Source: Escherichia coli (GTDB lineage Bacteria; Pseudomonadota; Gammaproteobacteria; Enterobacterales; Enterobacteriaceae). From it: a stretch of 17,976 nucleotides of DNA. Under the pieces are notes generated by a model. The model had not been told where the DNA came from and did not search any database. It saw only the letters and a list, made by a program, of their open reading frames with translations. Shown here one piece after another: positions 3,874 through 17,860 of this stretch (within the stretch, counting starts at the first letter, position 1; the number at the start of each line of letters is the position of its first letter). Both the position numbers and the translations under genes were made by a program. The DNA lies in NCBI RefSeq assembly GCF_003334385.1, contig NZ_QOWN01000062.1. One strand, written 5' to 3'.

Positions 3874-4819
3874 ACGCCCACTGGTTATAAACACGCAGCT
3901 GGCAATGAAAATTGGCTTAAACGAAGCCATTGTTTTGCAACAACTGCACTACTGGTTGAGAGATACCAACTCCGGCATGGAATGTGATGGTGTTCGCTGG
4001 ATTTATAACACAACGGAACAATGGCTGGAACAGTTCCCATTCTGGTCAGAGTCAACGTTAAAGCGCGCGTTTGCAAGTCTGAAAACGCTGGGGCTTTTGC
4101 GTTGTGAAAAGCTCAATAAATCAAAGCGCGATATGACCAATTTCTACACGATCAACTATGGGTGCGAGCTTTTAGATGGTGGCAAATTGAGCGAATCCAT
4201 CGGTTCAAAATGCGCCGCTCCATCAGGTCAAAATGACACGATGGAAGAGGTCAAAATGAAACGCTCCATTGGTTCAAAACGACCCAATGTCATCGGGTCA
4301 AAATGGCCTGATGATCTTACAGAGAATACAACAGAGATTACTACAGAGAATAAAAACACTTTTCGTCCGGAAGCTTCGCAACCGGACCCGCAGACGACTG
4401 AACAGGATTTTTTAACCCGGAACTCCGACGCGGTTGTGTTTAGTGCGAAAAAACGCCAGTGGGGTAGCAGGGAGGATTTGGCGTGTGCGCAGTGGATCTG
4501 GGGGCGGATCGTGGGTCTCTACGAACAGGCAGCCAGTGATGATGGCGAGATCATGCGACCAAAAGAGCCTAACTGGACTGCCTGGGCCAATGACGTGCGC
4601 ACAATGCGGATGCTGGATGGCAGAAGCCACAGACAAATTTGCGAAATGTTTGGTCGGGTTCAGCGAGATCCATTCTGGGTAAAAAACATCATGAGCCCGT
4701 CAAAGCTCCGCGAAAAATGGGACGAACTGGTCATCCGCCTGGGACGTTCACCTGTACAGCGTTGTGTTAATCATATTTCTGAACCGGATACAGAAATTCC
4801 GCCTGGTTTCAGAGGATAA
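3854..4819 (+). CDS. Phage replication initiator / replisome-organizer protein (lambda O-like role), 321 aa from the ATG at 3854
   Basis: Track ORF 3800..4819; preferred start at 3854 (MSLLFAERPLVINTQLAMKIGLNEAIVLQQLHYWL, an HTH-like N-terminus). The gene contains five iteron repeats at 4196-4305, as ori-lambda lies inside O. Confidence 0.7.
   Translation: MSLLFAERPLVINTQLAMKIGLNEAIVLQQLHYWLRDTNSGMECDGVRWIYNTTEQWLEQFPFWSESTLKRAFASLKTLGLLRCEKLNKSKRDMTNFYTINYGCELLDGGKLSESIGSKCAAPSGQNDTMEEVKMKRSIGSKRPNVIGSKWPDDLTENTTEITTENKNTFRPEASQPDPQTTEQDFLTRNSDAVVFSAKKRQWGSREDLACAQWIWGRIVGLYEQAASDDGEIMRPKEPNWTAWANDVRTMRMLDGRSHRQICEMFGRVQRDPFWVKNIMSPSKLREKWDELVIRLGRSPVQRCVNHISEPDTEIPPGFRG
4196..4305 (+). repeat. 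Five direct iterons (core GGT(T)CAAAA(T/C)G) at 22-25 bp spacing inside the replication gene; candidate replication origin
   Basis: Core starts at 4202, 4226, 4249, 4271 and 4296, with flanks TCCATCGGTTCAAAATG, TCCATCAGGTCAAAATG, GAGGTCAAAATG, TCCATTGGTTCAAAACG and GTCATCGGGTCAAAATG. Followed at 4320-4356 by three ACAGAGA(A/T)TA repeats in an A-rich stretch. Confidence 0.6.
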
Positions 4820-4859: not shown

Positions 4860-5282
4860 GTGGCAAAAGTTTTTACACAAGAAGAGCGGGAAAAAATTAA
4901 ATGGCAGGTGGTGGAACTCGTGCGCCAGAGCGGCCGTGAGACGTTACGGCAACTGGAAGCTAAAACAGGTGCGACTAGATATCTGATGAGCGTTCTTGCC
5001 AGAGAGCTGGTAGCCAGTGGCGATGTATACAACTCCGGCTACGGGTTATTCCCCTCTGAACAGGCGCGTAAGGACTGGCAAAACGCCCGCAAAAAACTCT
5101 CGAGGGCAAAGGTGAAGAAACCTGCTTTGGTTGATCCGGACCTTATCTGGTCATCACCTGACGGAGAAATACGTCGCTACGACAGTCGCCTAAACATAAT
5201 CTGTCGCGAGTGCCGGAAGAGCGAAGTTATGCAGCGCATACTGGCTTTCTATCAGGGTAATTTTCAGGACGTGGCGCAGTGA
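4860..5282 (+). CDS. Hypothetical 140-aa protein (GTG start), downstream of the replication initiator
   Basis: Track ORF preceded by AAGGGGGA Shine-Dalgarno. Its stop overlaps the GTG start of the following methyltransferase ORF (GTGA). No recognisable motif. Confidence 0.5.
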   Translation: MAKVFTQEEREKIKWQVVELVRQSGRETLRQLEAKTGATRYLMSVLARELVASGDVYNSGYGLFPSEQARKDWQNARKKLSRAKVKKPALVDPDLIWSSPDGEIRRYDSRLNIICRECRKSEVMQRILAFYQGNFQDVAQ

Positions 5283-5725
5283 GTGCACCGGCAACCATTC
5301 TTGATATGTGCTGTGGCAGCCGCATGTTCTGGTTCGATAAGTCTGACGAACGGGCGATATTCAGCGATATCAGAAAAGAAGGATACACATTACGCAATGG
5401 GAGACGCTTGATTATCAGCCCTGACATTATCGCAGATTTTCGTGCATTATCATTTGCAGACGCATCTTTTTCGATGGTTGTATTAGACCCTCCGCATCTT
5501 GAGAGTGTTGGTGATAACGCCTGGATGGGAAAGAAATATGGACGGCTGAATAAAGATGCCTGGCGTGATGATTCGCGACAGAGATTTAAAGAAGCCTTTC
5601 GGGTGTTGAGGCCGCACGGCGTTCTGATTTTTTAATGGAATGAAACGCAAATACCGGTAAGCCAGATTCTGGCACTGACAGACAGAAAACCTGTTATCTG
5701 TCAACGAACAGGGAAAAAACGATAA
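5279..5725 (+). pseudogene. DNA amino-methyltransferase (motif I DMCCGS, motif IV DPPH) interrupted by an in-frame TAA at 5633-5635
   Basis: Track ORF 5279..5635 carries VVLDPPHLE, the D-P-P-[YFWH] catalytic motif of N6A/N4C methyltransferases, and a SAM-binding-like ILDMCCGS. The same frame continues after the TAA for 29 codons (WNETQIPVSQILALTDRKPVICQRTGKKR) to a TAA at 5723-5725. Confidence 0.5.
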
Positions 5726-5897
5726 AACCCACTGGATTATTTTTATGAAAGAGGCATCCAGTGAGTAGATTCGTAAGGCTACAGATACGTATATCTGAAT
5801 AATTAAATTCAGTTCTGTAAATAAAATTTAATCCTTAACCGGATGGATTTCTGCACCCTCAGAACATCAGGAGGCAGCCCGAAAGGGCGGTAGTGAA

Positions 5898-6080
5898 ATG
5901 CGAAAGTTCAAAATTATTATTGAAACGGGAATAGCTGGTGGAGATTTTGAGGATGTATTCGAAGTGGACGATGACGCAACACCTGAGGAAATTCATGACG
6001 GAGCATAAGAAATTTTCTTTAACTACTGCAATTACTCATACCACGAAATAAAAGACGATGAGGAAGAACAAAGTGGCTGA
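5898..6080 (+). pseudogene. Small acidic ORF (36 codons) with an in-frame TAA at 6006-6008 and a 23-codon in-frame continuation
   Basis: MRKFKIIIETGIAGGDFEDVFEVDDDATPEEIHDGA, stop, then EIFFNYCNYSYHEIKDDEEEQSG in the same frame. Manual translation. Confidence 0.3.
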
Positions 6081-6249
6081 TTTTTGTTCAGCTAAATATA
6101 ACATCAGTTTTGAAGAGCGGGATGAACTATTAATGGACTATGGTGAGTTACGCGGTGGAAGTGCTGCTGATGTCGAATCCTAGCGTGATGACTATGAAGC
6201 GGGAAAAACTCCGGTCGAAGCATATTGTGATGAGTGGGGCGATGAATGA
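6058..6249 (+). pseudogene. Small ORF (41 codons) with an in-frame TAG at 6181-6183 and a 21-codon acidic in-frame continuation
   Basis: MRKNKVADFCSAKYNISFEERDELLMDYGELRGGSAADVES, stop, then RDDYEAGKTPVEAYCDEWGDE. The terminal TGA overlaps the ATG of the next ORF (ATGA). Confidence 0.35.
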
Positions 6250-6533
6250 GCGAGATTAATTATCAGGAAGGGCATGAAACGGCGGGGCAAGCAAAACCAG
6301 TGGCATGGCGATATCGCTACGTGAAAAAAGGCGTTACGGACTTTCAGGGGAAGTAGTGGTCTGGTGACTGGAAATATGTACCGAAAAAAGAGGATTGTAA
6401 CGACAGGCCGAACTATCAAATTCAGGCCTTATTCACTGCCTCACCAGTCCCAGTTACATCAGAAGAACTGGTTAAAGCTGTGCACTTTTATGAACAACTA
6501 AAACGCGAAAATCCACCAACATCCGGCAACTAG
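6246..6533 (+). pseudogene. Small ORF (36 codons) with an in-frame TAG at 6354-6356 and a 58-codon in-frame continuation
   Basis: MSEINYQEGHETAGQAKPVAWRYRYVKKGVTDFQGK, stop, then WSGDWKYVPKKEDCNDRPNYQIQALFTASPVPVTSEELVKAVHFYEQLKRENPPTSGN in the same frame. Confidence 0.4.
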
Positions 6534-6787
6534 ATTAATGGATTAACTATGTCGGTTAAACGACCAGCCAACTGAAAAAGCGGAAACCTGATTACAGGTT
6601 GCCAGATAAGGCAATGAGCTACCTGGCGCGGAACGGACTGATAAGTATGGGGAATGTTTTACGATGAACCTTTAGACTAAAGAGTTTGTAACGCTATGTA
6701 AGTGATTTTTTCTGGTTTAGATATTTATATGTCCGGCCAAATTGAGGTGTGTTTAAATGTAATTGCACATTGATTGTAGGAGGAATA

Positions 6788-6967
6788 ATGAAAAACGCAT
6801 TGCAGTTTTTGTTTGTTGCGTTCTGGTTGTTCGCATCATGTATGCCCATCATCTTCACAGCAAGGTATATGGAAAAAGTTGATGTTTTGATATTAATATT
6901 TGGATATATAAATGCCCTTTTTTTAGGGGTGTTCATGGCGGTCATGTGCATTGAATACTGGCGGTAA
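6788..6967 (+). CDS. Small hydrophobic protein, 59 aa, two predicted transmembrane segments
   Basis: ATG at 6788 with AGGAGG at 6778-6783. MKNALQFLFVAFWLFASCMPIIFTARYMEKVDVLILIFGYINALFLGVFMAVMCIEYWR. No antisense gene explains it. Confidence 0.45.
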   Translation: MKNALQFLFVAFWLFASCMPIIFTARYMEKVDVLILIFGYINALFLGVFMAVMCIEYWR

Positions 6968-7301
6968 ATACAGCGAACTCCATTGGTTTAGTTGGATATT
7001 TACTGTGCTGGACAAAAACGGTTTGCGGGGAAATCTTAGTTAAGTAGAATGACTGCGGGTGCTTGAGGCTATCTGCCTCGGGCATGGACACCAACGGCAG
7101 ATAGAGAAAAGCCCCAGTTAACATTACGCGTCCTGCAAGACGCTTAACATTAATCTGAGGCCAATTTCATGCTAGACACATGTAGGTTAGCCTCTTACGT
7201 GCCGAAAGGCACGGAGAAGCAGGCTATTGTTAACACCAAGCTGTAATGTCCCCTTTGAACCATTCTAAAATGTCCCCAGACAATTCTCTGGGGGATTTTT
7301 C

Positions 7302-8615
7302 ATGATCAAAGAGACTGTTACGATGAGTCATAAGGAACTCCACCGACTTCAGATTATTCAGGAACAAGCTGCGGCACGCATTGGCATTTCTATTCGGCAG
7401 GTTAAACGTCTGGTGCAACGGTATAGAAATGAAGGGCCTTCTGGTCTGGTTTCCCACCGACGTGGAAAGCGTCCTAATAATTCCTTTTCTACTGAATTCA
7501 GAGCAACAGTAATTTCACTCCTCAAAGGCCGTTACGCTGATTTTGGACCTACGTTTGCGTGCGAAAAATTGCGCGAGATACACGGTTTATCTTTATCCGT
7601 TGAAACTCTCAGAAAGTGGATGATAGAAGAGGGGTTATGGCGTGAACGCCGTCGTAAAATTGCCCGTATATATCAACGCCGCATGCGACGACCATCTTAC
7701 GGTGAACTGATCCAGATTGATGGCTCACCTCATGACTGGTTTGAAAATCGAGGCCCCAGATGTACACTGATCGTTTTCATTGATGATGCCACCAGTGCGT
7801 TGATGGCGTTGCGTTTTGTGCCTGCTGAAACAACCCGGGCTTACATGGAAACCCTCCGGGGTTACCTTAATGATCATGGCGTACCGCTCGCTCTCTACTC
7901 TGATAGACACAGTATATTCAGGGTAAATAACCCAGAGCGGGAAGGTGAGCTGACCCAGTTCACTCGTGCGATAAAGACACTGGGCATCGAGCCAATCCAT
8001 GCCAACAGCCCGCAGGCAAAAGGGCGGGTAGAGCGCGCCAATCAGACACTACAGGACAGGCTGGTCAAAGAAATGCGGCTTCAGAATATCAGTGATATTG
8101 AAACAGCAAATGCATGGTTGCCGACCTTTATTGAAGCCTATAACAACCGGTTCGCTACGTCGCCTCGTACTACTGATAATGCTCATCTTGATGTGCACCA
8201 TTCTGAAGAGGAACTGGGTTATATCTTCAGCCTACAGGCGAAGCGCGTTCTGTCTAAAAATCTCACTTTCCAGTACAAAAGCAGTGCGTTTCAGGTACGC
8301 AGTGAGGGCCGGGGATATCGACTTAGGCATTCGGTTGTTACTGTATGCGAGAACTTTGACGGTGAAATTAACGTTCTGTATGACGGGAAAGCGCTGGGCT
8401 GGGAAAAGTATGTTGATGGCCCGGAGCCTATACCACTGGATGATGAAAAGAGTGTCCATGAACGAGTGGATAATGCCCGTATTGATTTACGCTCAAAATA
8501 CTATGTTAAACCTAAAGCTGACCATCCCTGGCTTACGCGCCGAACGCAAAGTCATCAGCAAGTTAAGCCCCCGAAGTTACCTAAAAAGAAGCCTGATCCC
8601 GATAAAAAAGATTGA
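7302..8615 (+). CDS. IS-element DDE transposase (integrase-core/rve type with N-terminal HTH), 437 aa; family uncertain (IS481-like or ISNCY-like)
   Basis: Track ORF with HTH-like N-terminus (IGISIRQVKRLVQRY) and candidate DDE residues in IQIDGSPHDW, IVFIDDATSA and GRVERANQTLQD. Ends of the element could not be defined. Confidence 0.8.
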   Translation: MIKETVTMSHKELHRLQIIQEQAAARIGISIRQVKRLVQRYRNEGPSGLVSHRRGKRPNNSFSTEFRATVISLLKGRYADFGPTFACEKLREIHGLSLSVETLRKWMIEEGLWRERRRKIARIYQRRMRRPSYGELIQIDGSPHDWFENRGPRCTLIVFIDDATSALMALRFVPAETTRAYMETLRGYLNDHGVPLALYSDRHSIFRVNNPEREGELTQFTRAIKTLGIEPIHANSPQAKGRVERANQTLQDRLVKEMRLQNISDIETANAWLPTFIEAYNNRFATSPRTTDNAHLDVHHSEEELGYIFSLQAKRVLSKNLTFQYKSSAFQVRSEGRGYRLRHSVVTVCENFDGEINVLYDGKALGWEKYVDGPEPIPLDDEKSVHERVDNARIDLRSKYYVKPKADHPWLTRRTQSHQQVKPPKLPKKKPDPDKKD

Positions 8616-9018
8616 AACCAAGATCGATTCGGTTGAGTGCATATCCATTCATAGGGTAGATTCTTAAGTCGCGTTTCTGGTGTTCATTTTCGGGTGGTTT
8701 GTTACTTGTTTTACCGGGGATATGCCAGAAACGCGCTGAGTCAGTCTGGGCGGTGCGCGTAATGAGGCGTTATGGTAAATAGCCTATGCTAATGTCCGCT
8801 AAGAGCAAGAAGCGGAAGTTGGCAGTTTTGTGGACTGTCCCCACAAAAGTGACTACAGAAATAGTTGCAATTCATAATTGATCATGGGTTGTCAGTTAAA
8901 CTCGTGGCGATTTAAATAGACTAATTGGGAGTGCGTCCATTACTTATATCTTGTAATGTTAACTATCAGAAATGATACAAAGATAATATGTCTTTAAAGA
9001 AAAGGCTGATGGCGAAAA

Positions 9019-9037
9019 GTGGCCCGATGAGGGCCAC
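9019..9037 (-). terminator. Candidate intrinsic terminator downstream of flxA
   Basis: Hairpin GTGGCCC-GATGA-GGGCCAC just 3' of the flxA stop; on the minus strand it is followed by a short T-rich tract (TTTTCGCC). Confidence 0.35.
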
Positions 9038-9051
9038 AATACGGCTGTCAC

Positions 9052-9384
9052 TTAGACGTAAATATCAATGGTGCCAGCGGTATTTGTATCGTCTTTTTTC
9101 TCTTCTTTTTTATCAGGCTGAACTGTCGCGTCTTCATTCTTTTTCTCTGCCTGCTGCCTTAACAACTGCTCCAGTTGAGCCCAGAGGCTTTCAATTTGCT
9201 TCTGTACCAATGCAGCCATTTCTTTTTTCTGCTGTGTCGTCATCCCCTCTTCCGATGAGATTTTCCCAAGCTTTTCAGTCAGCACCTGAATTTGTCTTGT
9301 GATTTTGGCTATTTCTGATGTTCCTTCCGGGGCGGAGTTGTTTGAAATAACGGTTGAGGTATTTCCCTGAATTGTGACAGACAT
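9052..9384 (-). CDS. flxA: FlxA (110 aa)
   Basis: Track ORF MSVTIQGNTSTVISNNSAPEGTSEIAKITRQIQVLTEKLG... matches FlxA as I recall it. AAGGAG Shine-Dalgarno and a sigma-28 promoter lie upstream. Confidence 0.85.
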   Translation of the reverse strand: MSVTIQGNTSTVISNNSAPEGTSEIAKITRQIQVLTEKLGKISSEEGMTTQQKKEMAALVQKQIESLWAQLEQLLRQQAEKKNEDATVQPDKKEEKKDDTNTAGTIDIYV

Positions 9385-9407
9385 AGATTTCTCCTTTTAA
9401 AAAAGCA

Positions 9408-9434
9408 CTATCGGCATGCACAAAAAAATCTTTA
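9408..9434 (-). promoter_or_regulatory. Sigma-28 (FliA) class promoter for flxA
   Basis: Minus strand reads TAAAGATT - 11 nt - GCCGATAG, against the consensus TAAAGTTT-N11-GCCGATAA, about 25 nt upstream of the flxA start. Confidence 0.6.
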
Positions 9435-9586
9435 ATCGTATTTCTTGTGTCATTAATTGTTTGATGTTCAGATTGTTTTCCTCGCGGGCTGGCGCGCCTC
9501 AGAAAGTAAAGCTTGTTGACAGGGGTAAACGTTCGGCAATAATTTTCTGCCGCATGCGGGTGTTGCATAAAACGTGTTACGTTCCT

Positions 9587-9892
9587 TTATCGACAGGTCA
9601 GGTCACCGCTCACCCGCCGACGAGAAAGCAACACTGACATGCTAAAGCAAAAAATAGATGAATAAGTTGAGTTGTGCATATGTAGCCTGACCGTCACAAA
9701 GTATATGGTGTCTGTACCAGTAAGATGATGGCCGGACTCTTTAAAAACGAGCTGACCTGCACAATACAGGATGGACTTAGCAATGGCTGCTCCTGGCACA
9801 AAGCGGACAGTGATCACCGTTCTTACGACTACTTTCTGACTTCCTTCGTGACTTGCCCTAAGCATGTTGTAGTGCGATACTTGTAATGACAT
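9587..9892 (-). CDS. ORF at the ydfV position (101 codons); coding status uncertain
   Basis: Track ORF MSLQVSHYNMLRASHEG... between flxA and relB; same length as ydfV in K-12 as I recall. No motif support. Confidence 0.2.
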   Translation of the reverse strand: MSLQVSHYNMLRASHEGSQKVVVRTVITVRFVPGAAIAKSILYCAGQLVFKESGHHLTGTDTIYFVTVRLHMHNSTYSSIFCFSMSVLLSRRRVSGDLTCR

Positions 9893-9905
9893 TTGTAATT
9901 ACAAG
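9881..9905 (+). promoter_or_regulatory. relO operator of the relBE promoter
   Basis: TTGTAATGACATTTGTAATTACAAG, with inverted TTGTAAT/ATTACAA repeats, directly upstream of the relB Shine-Dalgarno (GAGGTG) and ATG at 9917. Confidence 0.7.
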
Positions 9906-9916
9906 AGGTGTAAGAC

Positions 9917-10156
9917 ATGGGTAGCATTAACCTGCGTATTGACGATGAACTTAAAGCGCGTTCTTACGCCGCGCTTGAAAAAATGGGTGTAACTCCTTCT
10001 GAAGCGCTTCGTCTCATGCTCGAGTATATCGCTGACAATGAACGCTTGCCGTTCAAACAGACACTCCTGAGTGATGAAGATGCTGAACTTGTGGAGATAG
10101 TGAAAGAACGGCTTCGTAATCCTAAGCCAGTACGTGTGACGCTGGATGAACTCTGA
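9917..10156 (+). CDS. relB: RelB antitoxin (79 aa)
   Basis: MGSINLRIDDELKARSYAALEKMGVTPSEALRLMLEYIADNERLPFKQTLLSDEDAELVEIVKERLRNPKPVRVTLDEL; near-identical to RelB as I recall it. Confidence 0.92.
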   Translation: MGSINLRIDDELKARSYAALEKMGVTPSEALRLMLEYIADNERLPFKQTLLSDEDAELVEIVKERLRNPKPVRVTLDEL

Positions 10157-10443
10157 TGGCGTATTTTCTGGATTTTGACGAGCGGGCACTAAAGGAATGG
10201 CGAAAGCTGGGCTCGACGGTACGTGAACAGTTGAAAAAGAAGCTGGTTGAAGTACTTGAGTCACCCCGGATTGAAGCAAACAAGCTCCGTGGTATGCCTG
10301 ATTGTTACAAGATTAAGCTCCGGTCTTCAGGCTATCGCCTTGTATACCAGGTTATAGACGAGAAAGTTGTCGTTTTCGTGATTTCTGTTGGGAAAAGAGA
10401 ACGCTCGGAAGTATATAGCGAGGCGGTCAAACGCATTCTCTGA
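10156..10443 (+). CDS. relE: RelE mRNA-interferase toxin (95 aa)
   Basis: MAYFLDFDERALKEWRKLGSTVREQLKKKLVEVLESPRIEANKLRGMPDCYKIKLRSSGYRLVYQVIDEKVVVFVISVGKRERSEVYSEAVKRIL. ATG overlaps the relB stop (ATGA). Confidence 0.92.
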   Translation: MAYFLDFDERALKEWRKLGSTVREQLKKKLVEVLESPRIEANKLRGMPDCYKIKLRSSGYRLVYQVIDEKVVVFVISVGKRERSEVYSEAVKRIL

Positions 10444-10514
10444 ACCAAAGCATGACATCTCTGTTTCGCACCGAAGGTGACACTTCTGCTTTGCGTTGAC
10501 AGGAGAAGCAGGCT

Positions 10515-10670
10515 ATGAAGCAGCAAAAGGCGATGTTAATCGCCCTGATCGTCATCTGTTTAACCGTCATAGTGACGGCACTGGTAACGAGGAAAGACCT
10601 CTGCGAGGTACGAATCCGAACCGGCCAGACGGAGGTCGCTGTCTTCACAGCTTACGAACCTGAGGAGTAA
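10515..10670 (+). CDS. hokD: HokD (RelF) Hok-family membrane toxin, 51 aa
   Basis: Manual translation MKQQKAMLIALIVICLTVIVTALVTRKDLCEVRIRTGQTEVAVFTAYEPEE; GGAGAAG Shine-Dalgarno. Under 60 aa, so absent from the ORF track. Confidence 0.9.
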   Translation: MKQQKAMLIALIVICLTVIVTALVTRKDLCEVRIRTGQTEVAVFTAYEPEE

Positions 10671-17089: not shown

Positions 17090-17314
17090 TTTTGCGGGTC
17101 CTTTCCGGCGATCCGACAGGTTACGGGGCGGCGACCTCGCGGGTTTTCGCTATTTATGAAAATTTTCCGGTTTAAGGCGTTTCCGTTCTTCTTTGCCGTA
17201 ACTTAATGTTTTTATTTAAAACACCCTCTGAAAAGAAAGGAAACGACAGGTGCTGAAAACGAGCTTTTTGGCCTCTGTCGTTTCCTTTCTCTGTTTTTGT
17301 CCGTGGAATGAACA
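17090..17314 (+). promoter_or_regulatory. Lambda-type cos site: cosQ, cosN (12-nt cohesive end GGGCGGCGACCT at 17126-17137) and cosB up to the Nu1 start
   Basis: ...CGGGTCCTTTCCGGCGATCCGACAGGTTACG | GGGCGGCGACCT | CGCGGGTTTTCGCTATTTATGAAAATTTTCC... matches the right and left ends of the phage lambda genome as I remember them, then runs into the Nu1 start. Confidence 0.8.
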
Positions 17315-17860
17315 ATGGAAGTCAACAAAAAGCAGCTGGCTGACATTTTCGGCGCGACTATCCGTACCATTCAGAACTGGCAGGAGCAGGGAATGCCCGT
17401 TCTGCGGGGTGGTGGCAAGGGTAATGAAGTGCTTTATGACTCTGCCGCCGCCATAAAATGGTATGCCGAAAGGGATGCTGAAATTGAGAACGAAAAGCTG
17501 CGCCGGGAAGTTGAAGAACTGCGGCAGGCCAGCGAGACAGATCTCCAGCCAGGGACTATTGAGTACGAACGCCATCGACTTACGCGTGCGCAGGCCGACG
17601 CACAGGAGCTGAAAAATGCCAGAGACTCCGCTGAAGTGGTGGAAACCGCATTCTGTACTTTCGTGCTGTCGCGGATCGCAGGTGAAATTGCCAGTATTCT
17701 CGACGGGATCCCCCTGTCGGTGCAGCGGCGTTTTCCGGAACTGGAAAACCGACATGTTGATTTCCTGAAACGGGATATCATCAAAGCCATGAACAAAGCA
17801 GCCGCGCTGGATGAACTGATACCGGGGTTGCTGAGTGAATATATCGAACAGTCAGGTTAA
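17315..17860 (+). CDS. nohA: Terminase small subunit Nu1 (NohA), 181 aa
   Basis: MEVNKKQLADIFGATIRTIQNWQEQGMPVLRGGGKGNEVLYDSAAAIKWYAERDAEIENEKLRREVEEL... is near-identical to lambda Nu1. Confidence 0.92.
   Translation: MEVNKKQLADIFGATIRTIQNWQEQGMPVLRGGGKGNEVLYDSAAAIKWYAERDAEIENEKLRREVEELRQASETDLQPGTIEYERHRLTRAQADAQELKNARDSAEVVETAFCTFVLSRIAGEIASILDGIPLSVQRRFPELENRHVDFLKRDIIKAMNKAAALDELIPGLLSEYIEQSG

Follow-up and report, generated by a model that had tools for sequence, protein, structure and literature searches.

What is a perfect inverted repeat doing immediately downstream of a transposase gene in an Escherichia coli prophage? The question is raised by a stretch of 17,976 nucleotides from the E. 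coli contig NZ_QOWN01000062.1 (assembly GCF_003334385.1), referred to here as the window, which represents a Qin-like lambdoid prophage and carries the genes dicA/dicC, flxA, ydfV, relBE and hokD together with lysis genes. The two 11-bp arms of the repeat, CGCGTTTCTGG and CCAGAAACGCG, are 100% complementary, are separated by 44 nt and begin 55 nt past the stop codon of the transposase open reading frame (ORF), and both direct reading of the sequence and a repeat finder confirmed their position. An earlier note on this DNA had offered three explanations for the repeat, namely a long-loop hairpin, a protein-binding site or a part of the right terminus of the insertion sequence (IS). Our analysis favors the first of these. 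The inverted repeat most likely forms the central part of the main stem in an Rcd-type small-RNA hairpin, and this hairpin belongs to a cer-like XerCD multimer-resolution site that spans 8633-8780.

Taken by itself, the 11-bp repeat is no more than what chance would supply. Perfect inverted repeats whose arms measure 11 bp or more and whose spacer is at most 60 nt occur twice in the window, compared with a mean of 0.34 in first-order Markov resamples of the window, and 26% of these resamples contained at least one such repeat. While an expectation of about 0.34 perfect 11-bp repeats per window would be compatible with a chance repeat that has no function, the compensatory changes found in the helix across 37 distinct sequences are not, and we assign a negligible probability to this explanation. 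The significance of the repeat comes from its conservation and covariation, which are described below.

In ColE1, ArgR binds the ARG box, PepA binds the surrounding DNA, and together they wrap two directly repeated cer sites, which confines recombination by XerC and XerD at the core to sites on one molecule. A BLAST search with 8560-8960 of the window matched 3575 plasmid records, 2504 of them at 60-80% identity, and among the matches listed those of lower identity were mostly small plasmids, in which unannotated DNA covered ~8632-8784. Pairwise alignment showed that the window stretch is collinear with cer of ColE1 (NC_001371) from the ARG box through the XerD arm. The ARG-box-like sequence was aligned with ColE1 TTGCATAGGTATTCATAC, which we identify as the ColE1 ARG box. 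From the start of the box to the start of the XerC arm there are 115 bp in the window and 114 bp in ColE1, and from the end of the box to the XerC arm 97 bp and 96 bp, respectively; the distance given in the literature is 98 bp upstream of the XerC site (PMC2409434). Judged by its sequence, the locus thus has accessory DNA of the cer type, which spans about 180 bp on the XerC side and contains one ARG box roughly 98 bp ahead of the XerC arm, and here the box begins just 21 bp past the transposase stop codon.

The predicted XerC/XerD core has the make-up of a cer core, which consists of two 11-bp arms and a 6-8-bp centre and measures about 28-30 bp in total. Compared to the core of ColE1 cer (GGTGCGTACAA-TTAAGGGA-TTATGGTAAAT), the XerD arm is identical at 11 of 11 positions and the XerC arm at 8 of 11, and XerCD would be expected to act on this core. 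In copies linked to the transposase gene, both arms are nearly constant and the central region is variable. Among near-identical copies (including L003, L043, L048 and L068), we observed five forms of the 7-bp centre: TGAGGCG, TGCGGCG, TGAGGTG, TGCGACG and TGACGCG. A separate observation concerns E. coli MSB1_9I (L005 ~2500-2505), in which window positions 5050-8768 are deleted and a DUF977 gene is joined to the XerD arm, with a 5-bp microhomology, GTTAT. On its right side, the deletion stops precisely where the central region meets the XerD arm, and the event may be either an aberrant Xer-initiated reaction or a coincidence. We had considered this locus as an empty site and rejected it as such, since it is a deletion; similarly, two candidates for "solo" cer-like sites (H112 and H113) were rejected as remnants cut by IS26.

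The resemblance to ColE1 cer thus extends over the same collinear layout, a box-to-core spacing within 1 bp and a homologous, covarying helix. The two sites also differ. The centre of the window core is 7 bp long compared to 8 bp in ColE1, with natural cer-like sites in our alignment ranging from 6 to 8 bp; the window stem deviates at several of the 11 pairs, four of which are changed on both sides; and the promoter region and the sequence that follows the stem are not the same, as discussed below. Furthermore, the window site does not lie beside the replication origin of a small multicopy ColE1-type plasmid but within a transposon, which is found in this Qin-like prophage and in large IncF, IncI and IncHI2 plasmids.

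Folding of the + strand RNA of 8660-8745 yielded one single hairpin with an energy of -30.8 kcal/mol (z = -4.1 compared to shuffled sequences), in which pairing extends past the 11 bp of the repeat. The corresponding values are -19.1 kcal/mol for the - strand and -37.4 kcal/mol for the ColE1 homologue. In the alignment with ColE1, the repeat coincides with an inverted repeat of a different yet self-complementary sequence (GCGCGATCGCGCAG ... CTGCCGTGATCGCGC).

To follow the helix through evolution, cer-like sites were gathered by a pattern scan of 100,044 species genomes, using a pattern that fixed 10 loop bases and the XerD arm and left the stem free. Of the 58 loci obtained, we dropped ten with at most 44% identity to the window site as chance matches and one that had no upstream sequence; the scan loci together with copies fetched otherwise gave the 37 distinct sequences of alignment A2. 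In the 15-pair helix of this alignment (columns 17-31 with 68-82), 10 of 15 pairs have changed on both sides and 95.3% of the cells pair. For the two-helix structure overall, 91.9% of the cells pair, as opposed to 34-49% after shifting the 3' partner by 1-3 columns. None of 500 shuffles reached the observed values, and RNAalifold recovered the same helix unprompted. Pairing is kept in at least three stem classes (TTTCTGG/CCAGAAA, ATCGCGG/CCGTGAT and AACGGGG/CCCGTTT). Within the lineage linked to the transposase gene, the core stem GCGTTTCTG/CAGAAACGC is constant and its extension alternates between G·U and G-C pairs. Absence of the repeat from other copies, which the earlier note had named as the outcome that would speak against it, did not occur: every related copy examined has the repeat or a compensated version of it. 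A small ORF across the hairpin, annotated as "plasmid mobilization protein" in one plasmid (L003 3032-3154), was rejected as a coding sequence in view of the 1-2-nt indels and covarying stems in the family alignment.

The helix cells that depart from Watson-Crick pairing are distributed very unevenly between the strands, with 71 G·U pairs on the + strand and only one A·C. Because of this imbalance, the structure appears to have been selected as a + strand transcript, rather than as duplex DNA or as - strand RNA, and the long-loop hairpin is well supported as an RNA structure. These counts also bear on the idea that the symmetry acts at the level of DNA, either as a cruciform or as a symmetric contact for PepA, ArgR or FIS in the accessory region. 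In support of this idea, the region shares homology with the accessory DNA to which PepA and ArgR bind in ColE1, and FIS sites have been reported near the cer promoter Pcer (PMC2831885, PMC5357621, PMC5935869). However, a palindrome requires Watson-Crick symmetry on both strands, which does not agree with 71 G·T on the + strand and a single A·C, and the complete replacement of the stem between the three classes, with pairing kept, is a poor fit to sequence-specific protein contacts. We consider a DNA-level role of the symmetry improbable. The protein-binding site proposed in the earlier note can therefore be retained only in part: the repeat does lie in DNA homologous to the accessory region that binds ArgR and PepA in ColE1, but the G·U pattern argues against a role that is purely at the DNA level.

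The RNA known from cer is Rcd. It is made in dimer-containing cells from Pcer, which overlaps the ARG box, and it binds tryptophanase, raises indole and pauses growth until dimers have been resolved; to our knowledge, no other plasmid regulatory RNA has been found to target a protein, here tryptophanase, and indole signalling. The cer sequence encodes Rcd as an RNA of about 70 nt, which folds into one stem-loop in every ColE1 relative and is made from Pcer, a promoter with a sub-optimal 15-bp spacer, in the same direction as RNAII, leading from the ArgR side to XerCD (PMC5935869, PMC2831885, PMC4393325, PMC5357621). In addition, a conserved 15-nt sequence in Rcd has been reported (PMC5935869). 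In ColE1, we find TTGCAT-15-TAAAAT, which shares bases with the ARG box and stops 6 nt short of the foot of the covarying hairpin; the hairpin itself measures about 70 nt, and GCGTTTT comes directly after it. Because this layout of promoter and hairpin fits all of the literature statements, we take the hairpin to be Rcd. The hairpin of the window likewise forms a single stem-loop of the Rcd type, which occupies the stretch from the ARG box to the Xer core and points towards the latter, and its loop sequence GGGTGGTTTGTT is identical to that of ColE1.

Upstream of the window hairpin, our own hexamer scan gave a candidate promoter that matches at 8 of 12 positions and is located at the position of ColE1 TTGCAT-15-TAAAAT. 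The commonest plasmid group of cer-like sites in the alignment has a similar arrangement, GTGCAT-14-TAAAAA. A stricter promoter scan listed none at the hairpin, in the window as well as in ColE1. Transcription of the hairpin from the window copy is uncertain, and read-through from the transposase gene would be an alternative source. By analogy with ColE1, an RNA from this copy could have an Rcd-like effect on tryptophanase.

Several points weigh against the assignment of the repeat to an Rcd-type hairpin within a cer-like site. The pattern used to collect the sequences fixed 10 loop bases and the XerD arm, so that conservation in these parts is in some measure circular; this includes the invariance of GGGTGGTTTGTT in A2, 10 of whose 12 bases belonged to the pattern, whereas the stem was unconstrained. 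An Rfam scan of 6800-9100 at E <= 1 returned nothing at the hairpin region, and no curated family backs the assignment. The name Rcd follows from position, size and shape in combination with secondary literature. The window promoter is weaker than that of ColE1, with a -10 sequence of TAGATT rather than TAAAAT and a spacing of 14 or 18 bp rather than 15 bp, and no U-tract was found after the stem of the window hairpin. ColE1 contains a second candidate with a 15-bp spacer, TGAACG-15-TACAAT, which overlaps the XerC arm and from which Rcd would start on the right-hand side of the core; we rejected it as Pcer, given that the region downstream of it is unconserved among cer-like sites and that it clashes with the report that Pcer mutations have no effect on recombination (PMC4393325). 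The transposase gene of the window carries a 27-bp in-frame deletion in the N-terminal region (at ~7357/7358, between two TCAGGA repeats) compared to the 446-aa plasmid copies, which suggests that this transposon copy is decaying and maybe inactive; the same deletion is present in E. coli strain W13-16 (L002). Finally, the site has a single-copy chromosomal setting.

The position of the hairpin would also suit a transcription terminator or a 3' stabilizer of the transposase mRNA. On the coding strand it forms a stable hairpin a short distance past the stop codon, and it would be included in a transcript that reads through from the transposase gene. Intrinsic terminators, though, combine a G+C-rich hairpin and a short loop with a U-tract, whereas the loop found here is long and highly conserved, the U-tract is missing and a terminator scan found nothing in 8550-8950, nor at the hairpin of ColE1. 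Moreover, the hairpin is older than its link to the transposase, being present in the cer sites of plasmids that do not have the gene. We therefore judge it quite unlikely that the hairpin is a terminator or stabilizer in its own right, although a stabilizing side-effect on the transposase mRNA may occur.

An Rcd-type hairpin in a cer-like site remains our preferred explanation, and this site is linked to the transposase gene. Plasmid records annotate the gene as ISEsa1 family, and its product is a single large DDE transposase, as in elements of the ISNCY / IS1202 type. The cer-like site follows the gene at ~98% identity both in IncF/IncR plasmids (L003) and in a contig from an Enterobacter genome (L014), in copies with 92.6% identity (L010-L012) and in relatives with 83% (L065) and ~55% (L066) C-terminal identity. 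In an 80% relative on a Klebsiella IncFIB plasmid (L071, 1285-3460), the transposase gene is separated from the Rcd-like hairpin by a RelE/ParE toxin-antitoxin pair; this relative retains the ARG box, a -10 sequence TAAAAT and the stem, and its Xer core is degraded. A Cedecea contig (L018 3677-4009) contains a miniature derivative of ~335 bp, composed of a diverged left end, 22 transposase codons, an Rcd-like hairpin, an Xer core and the right end ...GCGGACA, at which no target duplication was seen. No cer-like sequence was found in a 48%-identical IS1202-family relative (L072).

The shorter block shared by many contexts begins exactly at 7228 in six of them and ends at 8816-8821 in at least five contexts other than the window, with a boundary near the homologous position also in the distant relatives L018 and L066. 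The inverted repeat is situated 81-86 bp inside that end. Its place downstream of the transposase and within a conserved block is what would be expected of a right IS terminus or of a subterminal transposase-binding site, and the loop sequence GGGGATAT at 8714-8721 weakly resembles the reverse complement of the left-end sequence ATGTCCCC, with 15 of 22 positions matching in the surrounding sequence. A score of 15/22, however, is at chance level for the comparisons made. The hairpin is present, with a different complementary stem, in ColE1, which has no annotated transposase, and in many small plasmids, where the matches lie in unannotated DNA; the G·U asymmetry favors RNA over recognition of duplex DNA; and a terminus with a target duplication is found at 10501, 1.7 kb further to the right. 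The proposal that the repeat belongs to the right terminus of the IS is therefore contradicted by the data, and we regard it as very unlikely. The boundary at 8816-8821 itself has no convincing counterpart at the left end, as local alignment and an exhaustive comparison of 22-mers gave only 14-15/22, the level expected by chance. The GCGGACA at this boundary resembles an inner left-end motif in inverted orientation, and the boundary could represent either another right end of the element or a hot spot of recombination.

Because the 1.6-kb block showed no convincing terminal repeats, we moved the search further to the right and found the true end at 10501. The mobile unit is a transposon of 3274 bp (7228-10501) with TGT...ACA ends (TGTTAAC... 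/ ...GTTGACA), which carries the transposase gene, the cer-like site, flxA, ydfV, relB and relE. Terminal TGT/ACA repeats are present at 7228/10501 and are missing at the 8816-8821 boundary, which matches the published ISEsa1 of ~1.6 kb. The insertion lies in a hok gene: the Rfam "sok" model matches the hok leader at 7057-7228, and the transposon separates this leader from the hokD ORF at 10515-10670, whereas in an uninterrupted relative (L009) the leader runs straight into the hokD ORF with a single copy of the 15-bp target. Since both halves of hok survive along with a complete transposon and its 15-bp duplication, the insertion event can be reconstructed base by base.

Two further complete copies support this anatomy. 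A copy of 3307 bp with 99.5% identity lies in a plasmid hok gene of pEnt261 (L073 2058-5394) and is flanked by GGAGAAGAAGGCCAT, and a copy of 3301 bp lies in pndA of an IncI plasmid (L074 88-3418) and is flanked by TGGAGGGGCTATGAT. Both have the same right end, directly adjoined by the 15-bp target duplication. The duplications are perfect in all three independent insertions, as expected for an element of the IS1202 family, and those of the two plasmid copies also end in the AT of the toxin ATG. At a fourth locus (L012, ~1627-1641), the left end of the transposon adjoins the same hok motif in the opposite orientation. These results suggest an IS1202-family transposon that transports cargo and strongly prefers to insert where translation of hok-family genes begins. 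By comparison, the published ISEsa1 entry gives a length of 1609 bp, an inverted repeat of 15/22, no duplication and no conserved target (PMC10132070).

Some features of the left end and the hok leader were noted alongside. The left end at 7225-7258 resembles the XerD arm and the sequence following it at 8764-8801 in direct orientation (TATTGTTAACA..TGTAATGTCCCCT versus TTATGGTAAAT..TGCTAATGTCCGCT), and the motif AATGTCCCC occurs twice at the left end, near 7245 and 7269. We considered from this resemblance that the element might be Xer-integrated (IMEX-like) and rejected the idea, as the TGT...ACA ends and the 15-bp duplications explain the junctions. The possibility that the IS targets Xer sites was likewise rejected, the dif-like resemblances in the left flank (~6/11 per arm) being too weak. 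The hok leader has an insertion of ~16 nt relative to the Rfam model at 7108-7150, and a near-palindrome close by contains the XerC-arm-like sequence GACGCGTAA on the minus strand, probably by chance. The coordinates of all features are collected in Table 1.

Table 1. Features of the cer-like site, its hairpin and the surrounding transposon (positions in the window)
Feature	Position	Strand	Sequence or basis
5' arm of the inverted repeat	8670-8680	+	CGCGTTTCTGG; direct sequence reading and repeat finder; alignment columns 17-27 of helix 1
3' arm of the inverted repeat	8725-8735	+	CCAGAAACGCG; direct sequence reading and repeat finder; alignment columns 72-82 of helix 1
Rcd-type RNA hairpin, whole predicted stem-loop	8663-8740	+	Minimum free energy fold, homology to the ColE1 hairpin, RNAalifold on 37 sequences
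Conserved loop sequence	8692-8703	+	GGGTGGTTTGTT; identical in ColE1, invariant in alignment A2
Candidate promoter for the hairpin RNA	8633-8662	+	TTGAGT (8633-8638)-18 bp-TAGATT (8657-8662), or GTGCAT (8637-8642)-14 bp-TAGATT; hexamer scan
ARG-box-like sequence, presumed ArgR site	8637-8654	+	GTGCATATCCATTCATAG; 13/18 compared to ColE1 TTGCATAGGTATTCATAC
Predicted XerC/XerD core	8752-8780	+	XerC arm GGTGCGCGTAA 8752-8762, centre TGAGGCG 8763-8769, XerD arm TTATGGTAAAT 8770-8780
ISEsa1-type (IS1202 family / ISNCY) transposase	7302-8615	+	437 aa; NCBIfam NF033594, 456 bits against a cut-off of 250
Inner boundary of the shorter conserved block (transposase and cer-like site)	8816-8821	.	Homology breaks in L003/L014, L006, L007 and L011
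Left inverted repeat	7228-7253	+	TGTTAACACCAAGCTGTAATGTCCCC; 19/26 compared to the reverse complement of 10476-10501
Right inverted repeat	10476-10501	-	Top strand ends ...GCGTTGACA
Left 15-bp target duplication	7213-7227	+	GGAGAAGCAGGCTAT; from the hokD Shine-Dalgarno sequence to the AT of its ATG
Right 15-bp target duplication	10502-10516	+	Exact duplicate of 7213-7227; runs into the hokD start codon (ORF 10515-10670)

We also examined how the locus relates to that of E. coli K-12. Over the 441 bp of 8550-8990, K-12 is 100% identical to the window, and ~1140 of 5426 complete genomes have at least 80% of this stretch. K-12 (L001) retains the cer-like site, between ydfW and flxA, and the right transposon junction, which is the same as in the window (relE ... 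TTGACA-GGAGAAGCAGGCTATG-hokD). Most of the transposase gene and the left junction are gone, and the remnant of the gene, annotated as ydfW, comprises only the last 49 codons. Upstream of flxA, some strains (H1-H4) differ from the window by a 25-bp tandem duplication (tcttgtaatgttaactatcagaaat; L002 ~4420-4450, corresponding to window ~8946-8970). Elsewhere in the window, a perfect 16-bp inverted repeat, AGAAAGGAAACGACAG and its complement (17234-17249 / 17275-17290, 25-nt spacer), lies just upstream of a terminase small-subunit-like ORF at 17315.

The homology to cer, the conserved RNA-type helix, the stability of the fold and the linkage to the transposase gene are established by our analysis. 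The site at 8633-8780 holds all the sequence parts of cer, namely the ARG-box-like sequence, a candidate promoter, the hairpin with its conserved loop and XerC/XerD arms spaced 7 bp apart, and we propose that, along with relBE, it forms a plasmid-stability module carried as transposon cargo. The copy in the prophage would then be a passenger brought in by the transposon, a reading we adopt because of the relBE cargo and because the three complete copies lie in hok-family genes, two on plasmids and one in a prophage. It is also conceivable, but on balance doubtful, that the cer-like site is a working part of the transposon, with host XerCD, ArgR and PepA resolving cointegrates or multimers of the replicons it enters and the Rcd-type RNA serving as a growth checkpoint. 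The deletion in MSB1_9I that ends at the border of the centre and the XerD arm is a hint of low weight in this direction.

The element can be set beside three known systems. Transposons of the Tn3 family carry res/resolvase modules for cointegrate resolution, with accessory DNA that imposes selectivity. The window element similarly combines a site-specific recombination site and accessory DNA inside a transposon but, unlike Tn3-family elements, has no recombinase of its own, so that the enzymes would be host XerCD, ArgR and PepA. As for the target, Pedersen and Gerdes reportedly described in 1999 that chromosomal hok loci of E. coli are disrupted by insertion elements, including the relB-relE-hokD (relF) arrangement of K-12. 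Here, too, a mobile element has parted a hok gene from its regulatory leader; in contrast to the disrupted K-12 loci, the window keeps both hok halves, an intact transposon and the 15-bp duplication. Within the IS1202 family, members of the ISAjo2 / ISAba32 subgroup have their insertion points 5-6 bp away from the XerC arm in dif-like sites, and Xer targeting has been reported to be absent outside this subgroup (PMC10132070; bioRxiv 10.1101/2022.12.17.520857). The window element shares with this subgroup the transposase family and the physical tie of an IS1202-family element to an XerCD site. In ISAjo2 / ISAba32, however, the Xer site is the target, lies outside the element beside its left end and is accompanied by a 5-bp duplication, whereas in the window element it is internal and downstream of the transposase, and the target is the hok Shine-Dalgarno-ATG region with a 15-bp duplication. 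While cer/Rcd is a known system, we did not find its setting as transposon cargo in a Qin-like prophage described in the literature searched, nor a K-12 cer-type site, an Xer site within an IS1202-family element or the 3.3-kb unit, which is not proof of novelty.

Taken together, our results indicate that a complete-looking cer-type site with an Rcd-type hairpin lies unannotated in the Qin prophage of K-12, where a chromosomal homologue of Rcd is directly testable. The anatomy of the transposon would correct the published description of ISEsa1 as an element of 1609 bp with no duplication and no target, and a 3.3-kb insertion at the hok start would explain the origin of the relB-relE-hokD arrangement in K-12. 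In addition, an Xer site now appears inside an element of the IS1202 family, one subgroup of which is already known to target Xer sites. Should the cer-like site be a working part of the transposon, the "res" function would have been outsourced to Xer and the link between IS1202 and Xer would extend from the choice of target to carriage of the site, and the Qin prophage of K-12 would hold a potentially active Rcd-type RNA gene together with a cer-type site.

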